NCBI GenBank assembly: GCA_963758525.1
Contig: CAVWVQ010000003.1
Location: 608,001-672,000, forward strand
Length of the DNA: 64,000 bases
Origin: an uncultured Phycisphaerales bacterium
Lineage (GTDB): Bacteria > Planctomycetota > Phycisphaerae > Tepidisphaerales > Tepidisphaeraceae
Direction of reading: 5' to 3'
The position numbers and the translations under genes were made by a program. Below, piece after piece: positions 4,957-63,361 of this stretch. The notes beneath the pieces are model-generated. The model saw only the letters and a program-made list of their open reading frames with translations. It made no database searches and had not been told where the DNA came from. Numbering within the stretch: the stretch's first letter is position 1; each line of letters opens with the position of its first letter.

Positions 4957-6153
4957 TTCCCTTGCAGTTCTGCCTGGCGTCTGCGTCGCAGACGTTCGAG
5001 GACGTCGTTGCCGCCGCCCGTTGCCGATCCACCCGCGGGTGGTGTCGAAGCGCCCCGGCTGGCGTCGTGCCCGCCGACGGCGCCGTTGTTGATCCCGTCG
5101 ATCCCGTTGATGCCGTCTCATCCGAAGACGGGGGCGCGGCGGCTTCGCCGCGCAGGTTTTGTCCCACCAGCACGCGCACGGTCTTTCCGTCGACCGCGTA
5201 ATCGAGCGTGTCGAGCGTGATGGCCGCGACTTTCCCGCGCACGATTGCGTCGCCGTCCTGAAGAATCAGCACTTTCGACGCATTGCGATCTTCGACAAAT
5301 GCCAGAAAGCGATCGCCCGTCTGCGTCGCTCCATCAAATACCAGCGATTCCTCGGCCGAGGCCGATTTTGCCGGTGCCGACGGCGCGGTGGCGCCAGGCG
5401 GGGCCGCGGGAGTCGGCACTCGGACTCTGTCGACCACCCGCGTCACATGGCTTCCCTTCTGAAAGATGCTTCGCTCGGCCAGGATGGAGAACTCCTGCGG
5501 AAGGATGCGCGGAACGGTGATGTAACGCGAGCCATTCAAATCCGCGCTAACAGCCGCTGGCGCGGTCGTCGGCGCCGGCAAACTCGTCGGCCCCGTTGTC
5601 GCGAGTGGCAAAGTCGTTGGTCCCGTTGTGGCGATGGGCAAACTCGTCGGTCCGGTTGTCGCGAGTGGCAAAGTCGTCGGCGCGGTTGCCGCGACGGGCA
5701 AACTCGTCGGTCCCGTTGCGGCGACTGGCAAGCTCGTCGGTCCGGTTGTCGCGACCGGCGCAGTGGCCGGCTGCGTGAACGGAGCCGTCGCGGGGACGGC
5801 CAACACGTCGACGGGCGCCGTGGCGGCCGCCTGCGTTGCGGGGCGCTTGCCGCTCCTTGAGATGCCGGCTGCGTCGCCTGCTCGGTCGCCGGTTGCGTGG
5901 CAGCAGTCTCAGCGCCGAGCGTTCCTGAAACGTTCAGCGCGCCAACGATGAACAACGCCAACGCGTGCCTGATGAACGTCGTCGAAAGGCGAATCACTCC
6001 TGCTTGCAACGAGCGCGCTCTGGTCCCCTCTCCCGGTACGCCGGGAGAGGGATAGGGTGAGGGTGATTTCGAGAACCAACGGCGCTCGAGGTTCCAAATC
6101 ACCCTCACCCCAACCCTCTCCCGAAGTACTAAATGAACGTTCCATTGCCTCAC
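4953..6153 (-). CDS. GspC-position T2SS accessory protein with Thr/Pro linker; two apparent single-base frameshifts (~5840, ~5055)
   Basis: Joining frames gives hydrophobic segment, ATQP/ATTGPTSLP repeats, FSILAERSIF, LVFDGATQ and C-terminal NDVLERLRRRRQAELQGK*; GTGA overlap with gspM and ATGA overlap with gspD. Confidence 0.7.
5570..5760 (-). repeat. 30-bp tandem repeat (about 6-7 units) encoding ATTGPT(S/T)LP(V/L/I)
   Basis: Visible GCAAA(C/G)TCGTCGG periodicity every 30 bp. Confidence 0.9.
6024..6124. repeat. Palindromic repeat, CCCTCTCCCGG..CCGGGAGAGGG / CCCTCACCCCAACCCTCTCCC family
   Basis: Inverted arms; close homologue at 62650-62731 and degenerate copies at 22835-22875 and 22980-23030. 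Confidence 0.85.
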
Positions 6154-6727: not shown

Positions 6728-8208
6728 CTAACGGGTCGCCGCCGGCTGTTTGAAGTTGAACGTGATCGAGAACGACACTTCGCGCAGGCGATCGGCGTTG
6801 CTGGTGCTCAGCAGTTTGACGTCCGTGAAACCCGGGGTGGCATGCAGGCGCGATTGCAATTTGCTCCAGCCATTGGGGTCCGACGCTTTTCCATTGATCT
6901 GGCCGAACAGGTCGCCTGACGGCGGAGGCTTTTCGCCACTGACCGTCGCGCCGGCGGCGGCGCCGACCCGCGCACTCTCCCGCAGTACTACATTCGTCGC
7001 GTAGGTCTGATCGTCGTCCGCCAGCGCCACCGTGAGCCCGCGAAGACACGTCAGATAGCGCGGATCGCGCTTCTGCCAGCCCGTCGCAAACGACACCCGC
7101 GCGACAAAGGCGTTGGCCGAGTCGAGGCTCGGCTTCATTCCGTCAACTTCACGCCTTGCCGTGGCAAGAGCCGTCTGTTGCTGACCGAGGGAAATATAGG
7201 AGTAGATGCACAGACCGAGGAGCAGCACGCCCAGGGCGATTGCCAGGATAGTCCATCGCGGCATGCGCTTTCGTCGCGGGGCGCACGGCGCGAATGGATA
7301 AAATCCACTGCCGGGCGGGATGAACCCAGCGCGCACATCGCCAGCGCCACCGCCGGGGCAAATCGACTCGCGGTGCCGTTGAGGGTCGGGACGGCGACGT
7401 CCACTCCCAACGACGAGAGTTCTCCGCCCCGGACCACCATGCCCAGTTGCCCTCCCAGGGCGGCGGCGTCCAAACCTGTCTGATCCCACAGAACGATCGC
7501 GCGGTCTTCGGAGGATGCCGGCAACGTCGATACCGCCCGCCGGACGGCACTGACGAACGGGGCCGGTTGCTCGGGCCCGCGCAGATAGCGAACGGCGCTC
7601 GGCGCACCGTTGCGCTGCGCCGTGAGTTCCGCTCCGCCCGCGCTGACGGCAAGAACGAGCGCGCCGGAGCCGGCAGACTTTCCCGTCGCCTCCGCCAGCA
7701 CCAGCGCAGAGGAAGTGATTGCGATCGGCGAGAGCTTTGCCGTTGCGCACGCGGCTTCCACCGTCTCGATGTATTTTCCCGGCGTCGCCACCAGCAGCAC
7801 CGACTTGCCTGCGACCGATTCCTGCGAGACGACAAAGTCGTACGCCAGGTCCTTCAGTTCGGACGAGAATTCCGCCTCGGCTCCGGTTCGGAGCAGATCG
7901 GCCAGCGTGGCATCGTCGGTCTGGGGAACTTCCTTCTGTTTGACGACGATCCACTTGGCCGGCAATCCAACCACCGTCGTCCGCGCGCCAAATCCATGTT
8001 CCTTGCGAAACTCCGCCAGCGCCGCGCCGAACTGCGCCGTGTCGGCCGGCGTCACGCCCGCGGGATACTGCAACTCGGCGACGCGCTGCACGATCGGCCG
8101 ATCGCCCATCGTCACTTCCGCGGCCATCAGCGAACGCTCGCCAATCGCAAGGCCCAACACCGTCTTGTAACGCACACTTTTCACGCGGCTCCAATTTTCC
8201 ATGATCAC
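6728..8208 (-). CDS. gspL: GspL/PilM-PilN-like protein; apparent frameshift ~7285
   Basis: VLGLAIGERSL actin-like start, VVGLPAKW, VDFIHSR, then in the adjacent frame a TM helix and periplasmic domain ending FSITFNFK. Confidence 0.7.
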
Positions 8209-9704
8209 TGCGGCAACCCGTTCACCTGACTGTTGCCCGGCGTCGCAAACAAGCCGGTCACCACGCCGTGCCCGGCGCACATCGAATCCTGAATTTCCGG
8301 CGGAAGCGGCCAGCCATACGAAGTGAGATCACGGCGATATTTGATCGTTGCCGGCAGCTTCTGGGCATCCACCACAATCCGCACGCGCTTAAATGCCCGC
8401 CCGTCTCCGCTCACCGCGACGATGTCCGCGGAATAGACATAGGAACGCAGCGTGATCGCGCTGAGAATCCCGTTCGCCTTGGAGGCGGAGAGCGCGCTGA
8501 ACACCCAGCCGATTCCCGGGTTGGTGCTGGCCGTCGATTGCGATGCGATCAGGGTGTCGGCGTCCGATTCGGTCAGCCCTGGAAGACACTCGAGCACTTC
8601 CTTGGGGGCGGTGTTGACGTTAACGAGTCCTGGCAGTGTCTTGGCCGTGGTCGTCGTCAGATAATCGTACACTTTCGCGAACTCATCGGTCGTCAGCCCC
8701 GCCTGAACGTAAAACGATCCCAGGCTGGCGAACGTGTTGCCCGGCTTGGCTCGCAGCAGCGGAGTAATCCGCTTGATGATCTGCGTCGCCCGCGCCGCGG
8801 AGAGTTGCTTGGTCAGCACATTTTTCAGCGCGCCGGTGGTGGCGGCATTGACGTTGGCGCGAGCCGTTCCATCGCTGGCGGTGTTCGGCTCCGAGGAATA
8901 GCAGGTCAACCAGTTGAATATGCCGCGGCTGTTGCCGTTGGCGTTTTCAAACGCCGTCACATTGCCGGCATTGGCCAATTCGTTCTGATCGACCACGCCA
9001 TCCCGATTGACGTCGTAGCCGAAAAGCAGGCTGCTGTCCCACCCGTTCACGAGCATCAATTCCTCAACGGTCTCAAACGACGCGTTTTTCGCGTCGTATG
9101 GCTCAGCGAGCTGCTCGTAAAATTCGCTTTCGGCGCCGTTCGGCTGCGGGGTGCTGTCGGCGTCCCTCCAATCGATGATCGAATCGGCCGCGGTCGGCGT
9201 CATCCCCGGAAGATCCTGCAGCTTTGCCGACGAGGCAACGTTGATATTCAGCTTGCTCGACTCATCGACGATCCCTGCCATGTACGCCTGGTCCGTCGTC
9301 GGGTTGGGATGCAGCAGCCAGAAGTAGCCGTCACCCACCTGCAACGCTTCGGCTGGAATCTGCGTGATCGTCAGCGCGTCGTTCTGGTACGTCCCCACCT
9401 GTGCCAGCACCCATTGTTCCGCCCCCTGCTCGACCGCATCCGCCTTGGCAGCAGAAAGACGATTGGCCGACGCCAGCGATTCCGTCCGCATGTTGCGGGC
9501 AAAGACCAGCACCATGCTCGTGAGCACCACGGTGACGCCAAGCGCCAGCACGTAGATCGTACCGTGACGCGGGCGTCGTCCAAGCCGTCCCTCGTAGGGT
9601 CCGCTGGAGGGCGCGCAGTTGGATAGTTCTGATGAGAATCGTCGTCGCCCTGCTGCGGACCGTTCGGTGATCGAGGGATGGTCCGGATCTCGTGTGGTGT
9701 TCAT
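8205..9704 (-). CDS. gspK: Minor pseudopilin GspK
   Basis: RHG-TIYVLALG leader, IVDESSKLNIN, IIDWRDAD, GAESEFY, FETVEEL, VNVNTAPKEVL; ATGA overlap with gspJ. Confidence 0.9.
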   Translation of the reverse strand: MNTTRDPDHPSITERSAAGRRRFSSELSNCAPSSGPYEGRLGRRPRHGTIYVLALGVTVVLTSMVLVFARNMRTESLASANRLSAAKADAVEQGAEQWVLAQVGTYQNDALTITQIPAEALQVGDGYFWLLHPNPTTDQAYMAGIVDESSKLNINVASSAKLQDLPGMTPTAADSIIDWRDADSTPQPNGAESEFYEQLAEPYDAKNASFETVEELMLVNGWDSSLLFGYDVNRDGVVDQNELANAGNVTAFENANGNSRGIFNWLTCYSSEPNTASDGTARANVNAATTGALKNVLTKQLSAARATQIIKRITPLLRAKPGNTFASLGSFYVQAGLTTDEFAKVYDYLTTTTAKTLPGLVNVNTAPKEVLECLPGLTESDADTLIASQSTASTNPGIGWVFSALSASKANGILSAITLRSYVYSADIVAVSGDGRAFKRVRIVVDAQKLPATIKYRRDLTSYGWPLPPEIQDSMCAGHGVVTGLFATPGNSQVNGLPQ

Positions 9705-10405
9705 TGCGGCGTGCTCCCGTTCACATTGGAATCCTGCGCCGCCGTTGAGCATGCGAGGGGGAACACCCGCACAACCGAAACAGGCTGATTCTGCGAACTC
9801 GCATCCGCGCCTTGCCGCTGCAACTGCAATGTCACCTCGACGGCCGCGGGGATCGTGTTGTCCTCCTGCGTCGAATCCCACGTAGTGACCCAATCGGAGC
9901 CGGTGTAATAGCGCAGGCTGAAGCCCAACACATTGCGGCACACCGTCTCCTCGTCAGGCGTGACTCCCTGCTCCGAGAGAAGATTACCCGAAACCCGCCG
10001 CACGAGATCCTGCTGGCCGTTCTGGCGGGATTCGACGGTCAACTCCACTTCCTTGATCTCGCCGTTGCCGTCGGGGTGATCGGGAGCGTACGTGTTCGTG
10101 TAGAAGACCAGATCGGCGGCGGGATTTCCGCGGCCGTCAGTGTTGGAGGTTCCTTCAAACGTTCCCGCCAGCACGCTGGCGCTGCCCGGCTGCATGGTGT
10201 TTGATAGATCGTTGCCAAGCAGATCCATCGCCAGCGCCGCCGTCCGCGATGCCTCCAGGCTGTTGGTGGCCGCGCTCTGCGCCTTGAAGGCGGCGCGCAA
10301 GCTCTGGTAAAGGACGCCGGAGAGAACGGCGGCCATCGCCATCGCCACCAGCAGCTCCACCACCGTGAAGCCGGGTCGCGCCGAATTGTGCGTGCTCCTG
10401 TTCAT
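9701..10405 (-). CDS. gspJ: Minor pseudopilin GspJ
   Basis: G-FTVVELLVA class III signal; FSLRYYTGSDWVTTWDS..IPAAVEVTL. Confidence 0.88.
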   Translation of the reverse strand: MNRSTHNSARPGFTVVELLVAMAMAAVLSGVLYQSLRAAFKAQSAATNSLEASRTAALAMDLLGNDLSNTMQPGSASVLAGTFEGTSNTDGRGNPAADLVFYTNTYAPDHPDGNGEIKEVELTVESRQNGQQDLVRRVSGNLLSEQGVTPDEETVCRNVLGFSLRYYTGSDWVTTWDSTQEDNTIPAAVEVTLQLQRQGADASSQNQPVSVVRVFPLACSTAAQDSNVNGSTPQ

Positions 10406-11214
10406 TGAGTTGCGGTGGTGGATGTCTGATTAGGGTAAATGACGGTTGAGAGCGCGATCGATTCCTGCCGGTTGCGATCGAGCCAGCTGACGCGAAGATC
10501 GAGCTGCTGCAAACCCGCGCCGGTGGTATCAGCGGCCCACGGCTGCACGGTTGCCTGCCACTGATACTGCGGCCAATCCGGGCTGAAATCGCCAGAGAGA
10601 CTCCCGCTTTGCCATTCCCCGGTCGCGACCAGCTCCGAGAGCTTTCCCTGGGCCAGCGAGGTGGCTTCGTTGCGATGGCGCGCCGCGGTCGCGGAACGGG
10701 TCGCGACCGCGACACCCTCCATGATCGAAGGGAGGACAATCGCAATCAGCAGCGTTGCCGCCAGGACTTCGACGAGAGTAAAGCCGCCGCGCATTCGCCG
10801 GCGCGGTTTCCACCCCAACCCGTCCTCCGAGCATGTAGGAGGCAAGCAAGAAAGGCTCCCCCCTGGCACGGGCATCTTGCCCGTGTTGGGGGCGTGGTGC
10901 TGAAGAGAATCTGCGATATCAAATCTTGCTTTCGTTCCAAGTCGCCCGCACGGGCTGGAAGCCCGTGCCACGGGAACACTTCCCCCAAAAACAAGCCGCC
11001 CAGCACGCAGGGCGGGATTCATCCCGCCGATTGACTCGGCAACCGCAGAACGCGGCGGGATAAATCCCGCCCTACAAGCGCTGCCGCACGTGGTAAAAGT
11101 GCGGGCAAGGCTGCGCTTGCAACCTTTGTGGTGGACGCTTCCCCGTGGCACGGGCATCTTGCCCGTGCTGGGTGCGCTCGATTGAAGAGCAGCTCGGACA
11201 TCAATTCGATTCAT
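10402..11214 (-). CDS. gspI: Minor pseudopilin GspI with a very long repeat-filled leader (alternative start ~10794)
   Basis: GG-FTLVEVLAA at 10782; ATG at 11214 overlaps the gspH stop (ATGA); frame open throughout. Confidence 0.8.
   Translation of the reverse strand: MNRIDVRAALQSSAPSTGKMPVPRGSVHHKGCKRSLARTFTTCGSACRAGFIPPRSAVAESIGGMNPALRAGRLVFGGSVPVARASSPCGRLGTKARFDIADSLQHHAPNTGKMPVPGGSLSCLPPTCSEDGLGWKPRRRMRGGFTLVEVLAATLLIAIVLPSIMEGVAVATRSATAARHRNEATSLAQGKLSELVATGEWQSGSLSGDFSPDWPQYQWQATVQPWAADTTGAGLQQLDLRVSWLDRNRQESIALSTVIYPNQTSTTATQ
10864..11167. repeat. Cluster of REP-like palindromes
   Basis: CACGGGCATCTTGCCCGTG at 10867 and 11149; CACGGGCTGGAAGCCCGTGCCACG at 10949; GGCGGGATTCATCCCGCC..GGCGGGATAAATCCCGCCCTAC at 11007-11075. 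Confidence 0.9.
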
Positions 11215-11708
11215 TTCGACACCTCCGCCGTCGGGACGATGTGAAACGCTTCCGCCGATGCTTCGCAGGCGACTTCCACCGTGCGGTCATAGCTGTCGGT
11301 GAGCCAGATCTTCGCCGGCTCGGTTCGGCCGCTGGATTGGAACTCGACGTACTGGCCGTCGGTGCGCTGAACAATGTCGGTGGTCATCTGCGACCCGCTG
11401 GCGATGGGAAACTGCTCGCCGTAGTCGTTGGAAAGCTCAGTGAAAATGCCGGCGCTGCCCGATGTCAGCCAGACCAGCTTCTTTGCCGGATCGACATTGA
11501 GGCGATACGTGCGTCCCTGCGATACGGCCTGCGTCCGCGCGTACCCGGCGAGGCTGAGGATCAGCGTCGCCGAGTCGTTGTTGGCGCGGCCCGCCTGGAA
11601 AGCGATCAGCGACGGCGCAACCAGAGCCGCGCCGATGGCCATGATGACCATCACGAAGATCAGTTCGATCAGCGTAAAACCGCGAGATTGAGTGATGGGT
11701 CCGCGCAC
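11211..11708 (-). CDS. gspH: Pseudopilin GspH/FimT-like
   Basis: RG-FTLIELIFV, YARTQAVSQG, VEFQSSGRT. Confidence 0.88.
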   Translation of the reverse strand: MRGPITQSRGFTLIELIFVMVIMAIGAALVAPSLIAFQAGRANNDSATLILSLAGYARTQAVSQGRTYRLNVDPAKKLVWLTSGSAGIFTELSNDYGEQFPIASGSQMTTDIVQRTDGQYVEFQSSGRTEPAKIWLTDSYDRTVEVACEASAEAFHIVPTAEVSK

Positions 11709-61454: not shown

Positions 61455-63361
61455 GTGAGCCGAAAACAGCAACTTCTTGTAAACGTTGTCGCGCCGTTGC
61501 TGCTCGTCGCGGCTACGACGGCGGCCTATCTGCCGGCCATTCGCGGCGGATATATCTGGGACGATGATTCGTTCGTCACCGACAACGCCATTCTCCAGGG
61601 CGGGCCCGATTCGCTGCGTCGAATCTGGTTGGAATTTCGGGCCACCGATCAATACTACCCGATGGCCTACAGCAGCTTCTGGCTGGAATACCGGCTGTGG
61701 GGATACAACCCGCTCGGCTCACACATCGTCAACGTCCTCCTGCATGTGCTCAACGCGTTGCTCCTGTGGCAACTGCTGCGTGTGCTGAAGGTCCCGGGGG
61801 CGTGGATCGCGGCGTTCGTCTTCGCGCTGCATCCGGTGGAAGTGGAGTCGGTGGCGTGGATCACCGAGCGGAAAAATGTGCTCTCCACGTCGTTCTATTT
61901 CCTCGCGTTCCTGGCGTACCTCCGTTTTTGCCCGCTGCCGGAGGCGCGGCGCGACTGGCGGTTTTACCCGCTGGTGATCCTGCTTTTTTTCTGCGCCTGT
62001 GGAGCAAGACGGTCGCCTGCTCGCTGCCGGCAGCGCTGCTGGTGGTGCATTGGTGGAAGCAGGACCGCGTCCGCTGGCGCGATCTGGCTCCGCTGCTCCC
62101 GCTGCTGGTCATCGGGGCGGGGATGGGCTTTCTGACTGCATGGATGGAGAAGCACGTCATCGGCGCCAAGGGAAACGATTGGTCGCTGACGATGCCGGAT
62201 CGGTTTCTCATCGCCGGCCGGGCGCTGTGGTTCTATCTGGGGAAGCTGATCTGGCCGTCGCCGTTGATCTTCATTTATCCGCGGTGGGACTTGAACCCCG
62301 CCGCGTGGTGGCAATGGGTGTTTCCCGTGGCGGCAGCGGGGCTGCTACTGCTGCTATGGCGCTTGCGTCGCGAGCTTGGCAAAGCGCCGCTGGCGGCATT
62401 GCTGTTTTTTGCGATCACGCTGTTCCCCGCCCTGGGATTCTTCGACGTCTACCCGTTCCGATATTCCTTCGTAGCCGACCATTTTCAGTACCTCGCGAGC
62501 ATGGGGCCGATCGCCCTGGCGGCTGGCGGCATCGCTATGCTCACCGCCCGGGCTACGCGGCACTCTCTCGCTCTCCCGGCCCGCGGCGAGCGTCGCCGAG
62601 CCGCACGACGGACTTCGGCGGCCTCGGTCGAACCGGAGAGGACGGGGGTGAGCGCGATTTCGAGAAACAACGGCATTGGAAATTCTAAATCACCCTCACC
62701 CCAACCCTCTCCCGGAATACCGGGAGAGGGGGCGGAGGGAAACGCTCCGCTGCGCATCGCGGCTAACCGGGACGTCCCACTGCTGGCGGCGATTGTGTGC
62801 ATGCCGGTGCTGGTGATCCTTGGCGCTCTAACCTGGCATCAATGTCTGATGTACTCCGACCTCAAGACGTTCTACCAAACCATCATCGCGGAAAACCCCG
62901 GCTGCTGGATGGCGCACGATAATTTGAGCGTGGTGCTGCTGCAGGAGGGACATGCCGACGATTCGATGAGCCATTCACAACGATCTCTCATGCTCAAGCC
63001 AGACGATGCGACGGCGGACGTGAATCTTGGGAACGCTTTGATTTCCCAGGGGCGTCTTGATGAGGCGATCTGGCAGTATCAGCGGGCGATTGTCGCCCAG
63101 CCGGATTTCCCCGAGGCCGAGAGTGATCTGGGCAACGCGTTGCTTTTCAAGCGAGAATTCGGCAAAGCAGTAACGCACTATGCCCGGGCGATCCAGTTGA
63201 AGGCCGACTATGCTGAGGCGCATAACAACCTTGGTTATGCGCTGATGCAGATGGGCGATCTGGACGAGGCAATTGCTGAATTCAAAAAGGCGCTGTCGCT
63301 TCGGGCGAATTACGCGCAGGCTCGGGAAAACCTGGGGAACGCAATGGCGCGGAGAGGATAA
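61455..63361 (+). CDS. TMTC-like multi-pass GT-C glycosyltransferase with C-terminal TPRs; apparent frameshift ~61997
   Basis: YIWDD, YYP, HIVNVLLH, FALHPVEVESVAWITERK, VADHFQYL, TPR repeats (AHNNLG). Confidence 0.85.
62563..62771. repeat. Nested palindromic repeats inside the TMTC-like CDS
   Basis: Homology to 6060-6124 and to 13552-13581. Confidence 0.85.

Follow-up and report, generated by a model that had tools for sequence, protein, structure and literature searches.

A gspI-like pseudopilin gene of the G000 genome probably still uses an ATG that overlaps the stop of gspH, and REP-type palindromes appear to have been inserted in frame between this conserved start and the prepilin-peptidase cleavage site. 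Both the orthologous junctions and a genome-wide comparison of predicted exported with cytoplasmic proteins point to this reading.

Structure of the gspI Leader

On its minus strand the window (the whole 64,000-nucleotide stretch of DNA that was analysed) encodes a type II secretion cluster, with Pfam matches for secretin, GspM, K, J, H, G, and F. The gspI-like gene is located between gspH and gspJ in the gspEFGHIJK..D cluster (Table 1). Of the Pfam families N_methyl alone matched its product; homologs are named GspI by their sources, those at 76-78% identity as "general secretion pathway protein I." A search of mature GspI against PDB sequences gave no match at E<=1.

An earlier note on this DNA had placed the gspI ATG on the gspH stop, and this holds: the ATG lies on the TGA and is preceded by a strong Shine-Dalgarno (SD) sequence. 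Such overlaps, attributed by the same note to most operon junctions, occur at H-I, I-J, J-K, and gspM-gspC-like, but not at F-G and G-H. The frame is open, as had been described, for 432 nt up to the G-FTLVE site, with stops in both other frames. All parts of a class III signal are present (Gly-1, Phe+1, Glu+5, and a hydrophobic tract of about 21 residues), and the genome contains two prepilin peptidase gene matches. The leader has a net charge of +16, no hydrophobic segment (maximum 19-residue KD 0.7) and a non-coding-like hexamer score. Near intergenic repeats stops occur at 0.024 per codon, which gives 144 repeat-flanking codons about a 1% chance of being both free of stops and correctly framed; the shuffled leader was open in 1.3%. 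Since the gspI site was picked for being open, its orthologs are the real test.

Table 1. Features of the gspI region and of related loci (window positions unless a contig is named).
Feature	Position	Strand	Details
gspI-like prepilin ORF	10402..11214	-	270 aa; sequence and Pfam N_methyl at residues 139-161
gspH pseudopilin	11211..11708	-	Pfam N_methyl and GspH; TGA at 11211-11213 overlaps gspI ATG
Shine-Dalgarno GGAGGT	11221..11226	-	6 nt before gspI ATG; duplex -13.5 kcal/mol with anti-SD motif
G-FTLVE prepilin-peptidase site with Glu5	10768..10785	-	cut between G144 and F145, 432 nt past ATG
Class III leader of gspI	10783..11214	-	144 codons, stop-free
AC-family inverted dimer, half	11137..11207	+	GTGG-tagged palindrome 11145-11167; 77% to 10855-10925; 66 genomic hits
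B-family GTAG REP inverted dimer	11007..11075	.	recent, nearly private to G000
AC/C-family inverted dimer	10863..10971	.	109 nt, the modal span
Rival start TTG 10818	10816..10828	-	GGAGG, 5 nt, TTG; 12 codons before cut; SD -9.5
Met141 ATG	10792..10794	-	4 codons before cut; SD -1.1, no SD in range; not conserved
gspK leader	9561..9704	-	48 codons, ATGA overlap; degenerate repeat pair ~9594-9660, ~12 genomic hits
gspC-like gene	5930..6153	-	GTGA-overlap start, P-family pair 6043-6122 in frame, then Sec-type h-region
P-bounded DUF559 cassette	G000:C3:1210762-1211290		PF04480 matches 1210856-1211035 and 1211025-1211138, two frames

REP-Type Families in the Leader

The leader comprises three elements with five palindromes, assigned to two genome-wide REP-type families. 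The earlier count of five palindromic units in at least two families thus stands, as do the translations TGKMPVP (twice), RAGFIPP..GGMNPAL, and VARASSPC. The units are 19-23 bp long and carry GTAG or GTGG tags; such a tag at the base of a GC-rich, imperfect palindrome of 20-40 bp is what characterizes GTAG-type REPs and REPINs. A library of 12 families has 1647 copies in G000, including 372 of B and 164 of AC, with fixed dimer spacing (B span 62 in 96 dimers, AC span 109-110 in 26). Placed on home-made gene models, all families together make up 891 clusters: 680 lie outside ORFs, 140 sit toward the N terminus, 46 are internal, and C-terminal tails have the other 25. The B pattern matches 348 times in G000, once in G006 and nowhere in the 39 other genomes searched; because it is almost confined to G000, the B insertion in gspI is recent. 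An Rfam search returned chance matches alone, far under the gathering scores. Heptamer-type tandem repeats of G000 (CAGGGTT and AGGCACG families, 135-255 copies) are also found in frame in leaders.

None of the 23 Y1_Tnp matches in the genome has a B or AC copy in its 700-nt flanks; families E and G flank one each. Among 30 Y1_Tnp loci of relatives, one is flanked by AC/C REPs (G015:C11:8082-11267), the Y1_Tnp gene lying between inverted copies, one of them identical to the REP in the gspI leader of G015. Given this single flanked case and none for B or AC in G000, RAYT-type transposases are the presumed agents of REP spread.

Conservation of the Start at Orthologous Junctions

Mature GspI identified 22 syntenic ortholog loci, two of them without a gspH hit, leaving 20 H-I rows. 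An in-frame start overlaps the upstream stop in 19 of 20 H-I, 19 of 22 I-J, and 20 of 22 J-K rows, or 58 of 64 altogether; rows from kin are not independent, and the three from the unpublished genome G004 have no claim built on them. In G005 the gspJ ATG directly follows the upstream stop. A purine-rich SD-like stretch is present at the gspH-gspI junction of most orthologs.

Leader lengths across the H, I, J, and K junction rows vary from 6 to 144 codons, most orthologs having short plain leaders. Thirteen of the 15 junctions of at least 83 nt have an overlapping or adjacent start from which the frame stays open, the exceptions being H-I of G003 (start at +13) and J-K of G021 (no start found). 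Orthologous repeats in random frames with stops, which the earlier note had named as refuting its interpretation, are therefore not the pattern observed. The product of the per-junction chances, 1e-15, is not relied on, since it assumes independence and so overstates the case. The longest of the relatives' repeat-bearing leaders, that of gspJ in G001 (same genus), has 133 codons, no internal ATG and one weak GTG (SD -2.1). Others were found in gspI of G002, G009, G012, and G015 (67, 24, 39, and 29 codons), gspJ of G005 and G021 (114 and 53) and gspK of G015 (46). Judged from sequence and translated motifs, the repeat families in gspI, gspJ, and gspK leaders differ by lineage.

A protein search restricted to 148-473 aa, and so biased to long forms, yielded 42 GspI homologs, two of which duplicate G002 and G015. 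Called leaders reach at least 40 aa in 16 of the 42, seven of these being without an internal Met; GTG and TTG starts are invisible in protein. A short GspI isoform was absent from the protein collection searched. Alignment of two low-share DNA runs gave short pieces alone, none reaching across the leader. One homolog, at 51% identity, is labelled Phycisphaerales, and the taxon is probably a planctomycete. Similar metagenome proteins were seen on 6-8 contigs. The five closest homologs (P0002-P0006, 75-79% identity) carry a P-family repeat instead and have no Met141. This absence makes Met141 lineage-specific and argues against translation starting at the Met near 10794.

A scan of the genome contigs found eight distant prepilins, which were left out of the analysis. 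Three prepilin genes (G000:C3:2708191, 4130192, and 4132366) have an identical 43-residue leader ending in RRPLHG, and two more share this end; the segment encoding it may have been copied between genes.

Downstream Starts and mRNA Structure

Alternatively, most GspI could be made from a downstream start (TTG 10818 or ATG 10794, elsewhere a repeat-borne GTG), in which case the repeats would be effectively intergenic and the open frame a relic or mere ribosome delivery. The TTG would yield an ordinary leader, MGWKPRRRMRGG cut before F, of 12 aa (4 aa from the ATG); the coding score of the ORF begins at 10794, and P repeats bring their own SD-plus-GTG. Gene callers put the starts of P0004 and P0005 inside the repeat, the second prepilin of G002 has its long frame broken and a TTG 17 codons before the cut, and Di Nocera reads N-terminal REPs as misannotation (PMC3733652, section 15). 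We nevertheless consider this reading unlikely. It leaves unexplained a frame that survived the recent B insertion and three elements, leaders without any downstream ATG (G001 gspJ and the seven homologs), and the contrast between exported and cytoplasmic proteins described below. Moreover, the SD of the TTG is paired in a local hairpin; the upstream start, however, is just as structured, the unfolding cost being equal for the two starts (10.2 kcal/mol upstream, 10.6 at the TTG), which weighs against the long leader. Ribosomes may use both, with no difference in the mature protein.

The leader mRNA is predicted to fold very stably across the upstream start, which counts against initiation there. 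At 10863-11240 on the minus strand the nested repeats fold most of it into a single long hairpin with the B dimer at its center (-249.7 kcal/mol, z -8.6). Such hairpins could have been co-opted, slowing reinitiation or elongation or stabilizing upstream mRNA and thereby keeping the output of minor pseudopilins, or of exported proteins, low. A fold that begins at the start codon would fit this role, as would repeats gained again and again at gspI, gspJ, and gspK across lineages. We rate co-option as very unlikely, however: the family, number, and affected gene vary by lineage, most orthologs do without long leaders, and in-frame repeats are found in internal loops and C-terminal tails as well (the 46 and 25 clusters above).

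Genome-Wide Distribution of Leader Repeats

The earlier note took cleavable leaders to be a safe haven where repeats gather under selection for an open frame only. To assess this, 3934 gene models were classed by our own hydrophobicity and motif heuristic, a crude signal predictor, and those whose upstream 240 nt include a repeat were tested (82 predicted exported, 185 cytoplasmic). If the repeats lie outside the gene, an ATG is expected between repeat and h-region in open and closed frames alike. In the exported set this ATG is missing from 31 of 48 open frames vs. 5 of 34 closed ones (p 6e-6; p 3.5e-6 when ATG or GTG is counted, 0.0013 with TTG added). The cytoplasmic genes show 14 of 63 vs. 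17 of 122 (p 0.21), and the membrane and ambiguous classes have no excess. Lipobox and prepilin genes alone (n = 19) give 13 of 14 vs. 0 of 5 (p 0.0005). The safe-haven bias is thus supported genome-wide for predicted exported proteins and not for cytoplasmic ones.

The excess in the exported set amounts to about 20-28 genes; hand review of the 31 cases found about 18-20 convincing and about a third doubtful or false. By a rough hand estimate from 635 exported genes with a median of 12 codons and 46 clusters in the 4.4 Mb core, repeat density in leaders is about 100-fold above that of mature coding DNA and near intergenic density. Other tests were set aside or count against the bias. A direct comparison of open frames (exported 48/82, cytoplasmic 63/185, p 0.0003) was set aside because the anchors differ, and the internally controlled ATG test is preferred. 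Of the off-frame controls in the exported set, one was open nearly as often as the true frame (44 of 82 genes vs. 48) and the other in 21. The overlap-start frame test over all genes was weak (11/48, 8/34, 4/43). A bias of insertions to multiples of 3, which the note had suggested looking for, was not borne out by the spans of B dimers inside ORFs (2/19 vs. 23/143).

Other Repeat-Bearing Leaders

Recurrence of the pattern had been claimed for four further genes. It holds for the gspC-like gene, where 11 of 13 scored relative loci start at the same overlap, and in part for gspK, but fails for the other two: gspG has a 40-codon leader with 3-4 weak hits, no repeat support and no overlap, and the repeats of the TMTC gene (62693-62764), although in frame, lie in an internal loop. 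This loop, between membrane segments of the TMTC-like protein, comprises P and S repeats. The internal clusters include tRNA synthetase-like and UvrA-like genes, labeled by eye. The gspC-like protein contains tandem 11-residue repeats (ATTGPTSLPVA-like; 5536-5760, minus strand). The labels LolA-like, prenyltransferase-like, M48-like, gspC-like, and TMTC are presumptive.

Three non-pilin examples keep the overlap start in their orthologs, and two of them show a different repeat in another lineage. The LolA-like gene has 84 codons from its ATGA vs. 29 and 33 in both close orthologs, five weak matches having been left out. For the prenyltransferase-like gene the upstream gene is common to 6 of 12 loci: ATGA starts give leaders of 95 codons in G000 and 100 in G015 with different repeats, G028 has 26 codons, and three others start 3-13 nt downstream. 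The M48-like lipoprotein shares its upstream gene in 4 of 6 loci, with leaders of 78 (G000), 35 (G010), and 111 codons (G003); G005 yielded no start.

A second prepilin is less regular. The upstream gene is common to 8 of 14 loci, of which three have overlap starts (68, 38, and 7 codons), one an adjacent start and four none. In G002 a 437-nt repeat junction is open for 110 codons and then meets two stops; it is a counter-example, true or assembly-born. In G000 the overlap frame is closed, and a frameshifted, P-flanked DUF559 cassette (Table 1) has its C-half in frame with the prepilin, which suggests that a mobile element linked to DUF559 underlies the P repeats. The remaining DUF559 loci have no close P flanks, apart from one partial case.

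Frameshifts are present in the mature part of the gspC-like gene (~5830), the region upstream of gspM (7135-7250) and the first TMTC-like gene (~61985), and represent either sequencing indels or real breaks. If they meant that the operon is decaying or the assembly faulty, the open gspI frame would mean little, and the 270-aa protein is indeed a singleton. This explanation is given the slightest credence of those considered, as an indel is likelier to break a frame than to create one, gspG, H, I, J, K, D, and F are intact Pfam hits, and the pattern is repeated in many assemblies and in the metagenome proteins.

Comparison with Known Systems

The comparisons in this section draw on parts of the papers cited. 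In-frame REPs, Rickettsia palindromic elements (RPEs) and MITE fusions have been published (PMC3733652, PMC3184786, PMC2229807, PMC8266576, PMC6497953). A bias of repeats to cleavable leaders was not found in the open-access literature searched, which included a term search of the Di Nocera supplement. What is new here is how long the leader is, how many independent insertions share one conserved start, and that lipoprotein and Sec signals, compared with a cytoplasmic control, show the pattern as well.

The closest likeness is to the REPs of Di Nocera et al. (2013; PMC3733652), which are GC-rich GTAG/GTGG palindromes forming inverted dimers, mostly intergenic and some in frame. The sections available regard many N-terminal REPs as misannotation, highlight DNA-repair genes, record REPs in the PVC superphylum and describe clusters encoding up to 43-82 aa in Thauera and R. 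conorii. A term search of the intragenic table gave no pilin, lipoprotein or exported, one secretion (GspE) and one signal (FtsY). Unlike in that set as described there, the start upstream of the repeats is conserved here and the targets are cleavable leaders.

Like RPEs (Ogata 2000, as cited in PMC3733652, PMC2229807, and PMC3184786), the repeats are in-frame palindromic insertions in protein genes, and N-terminal RPE-1 proteins are reported as expressed (cited in PMC3733652). RPEs, however, are described as single 105-146 bp elements kept in the mature protein, whereas several unrelated small families are stacked here in the removed part. The gspI-leader units, much shorter than the CGTC-tagged RPEs and differently tagged, are RPE-like in working but not RPEs. 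In the Yersinia YPO1552 MITE-ORF fusion (Delihas, PMC2229807) repeat-encoded residues likewise lie in a predicted signal peptide; there the MITE is said to supply the hydrophobic signal of a possibly new protein, whereas in the present case old, conserved genes have their hydrophilic n-region or leader extended by repeats.

The hydrophilic basic leader, Gly, F1, E5, and hydrophobic tract agree with the class III signals of type IV pilins and T2SS pseudopilins. The reviews describe these leaders, in the parts used, as cytoplasmic, variable in length (6-26 aa, type IVb ~15-30) and critically dependent on Gly-1 (PMC4471445, PMC10191384). Those of gspI (144) and of relatives (133 and 114) lie far outside the 6-26 aa range, short length being typical rather than defining. 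As in REPtrons, where a RAYT/TnpAREP gene has flanking REPs (PMC8266576, in part), Y1_Tnp genes are present and one in G015 is flanked by a gspI-leader REP; unlike in REPtrons so described, B and AC flank none in G000.

Evolution and Significance of Repeat-Bearing Leaders

The following sequence of events is proposed from genome data. High-copy GTAG/GTGG-tagged palindromes, with the B pair a recent arrival, would have been spread by RAYT-type transposases. Across lineages the SD, start, and stop overlap are retained, and leader length and repeat family vary. Frame-breaking insertions would be purged, the upstream start being needed, and in-frame ones would be near-neutral, as the leader stays cytoplasmic and is then removed. 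With the crude signal predictor, the statistics show the same for lipoprotein and Sec n-regions in the roughly 20-28 G000 genes.

Translation and processing would follow the course outlined in parts of two reviews (PMC10191384, PMC4471445). Ribosomes would start at the ancestral SD-led overlapping ATG and produce the basic, non-hydrophobic 144-residue leader; the hydrophobic tract would target the precursor to SRP/Sec; and prepilin peptidase would cut after Gly144, the leader being discarded. Repeats have likely piled up in leaders because these are discarded after export, so that selection would see frame and stops alone. What is thereby preserved may be translational coupling, as the earlier note proposed, or simply the ancestral SD and start. 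The repeats are best read as passengers in a tolerated sink for selfish DNA rather than as parts of the secretion machine.

A bolder version, which seems quite doubtful, would turn cleavable leaders into a landing pad that mobile DNA uses generally across this bacterial family, with space even for whole elements such as the DUF559 cassette. Leaders of 110-150 residues would be made and cut, hairpins would tune the dose of the pseudopilus tip, and lineage-specific de novo peptides would be steadily released.

Returning to the passenger reading, it names a coding niche where selfish DNA would gather under almost no protein-level selection, and offers a test bed for how non-coding repeats get translated. 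On this reading, prepilin peptidase and SRP/Sec should accept leaders five times longer than the published range. The default of treating N-terminal REPs as annotation errors would be reversed for exported proteins, which would affect how starts and signal peptides are called in repeat-rich planctomycete-like genomes. If the insertions are neutral, as is likely, they would represent an elegant evolutionary rule and not a new machine.
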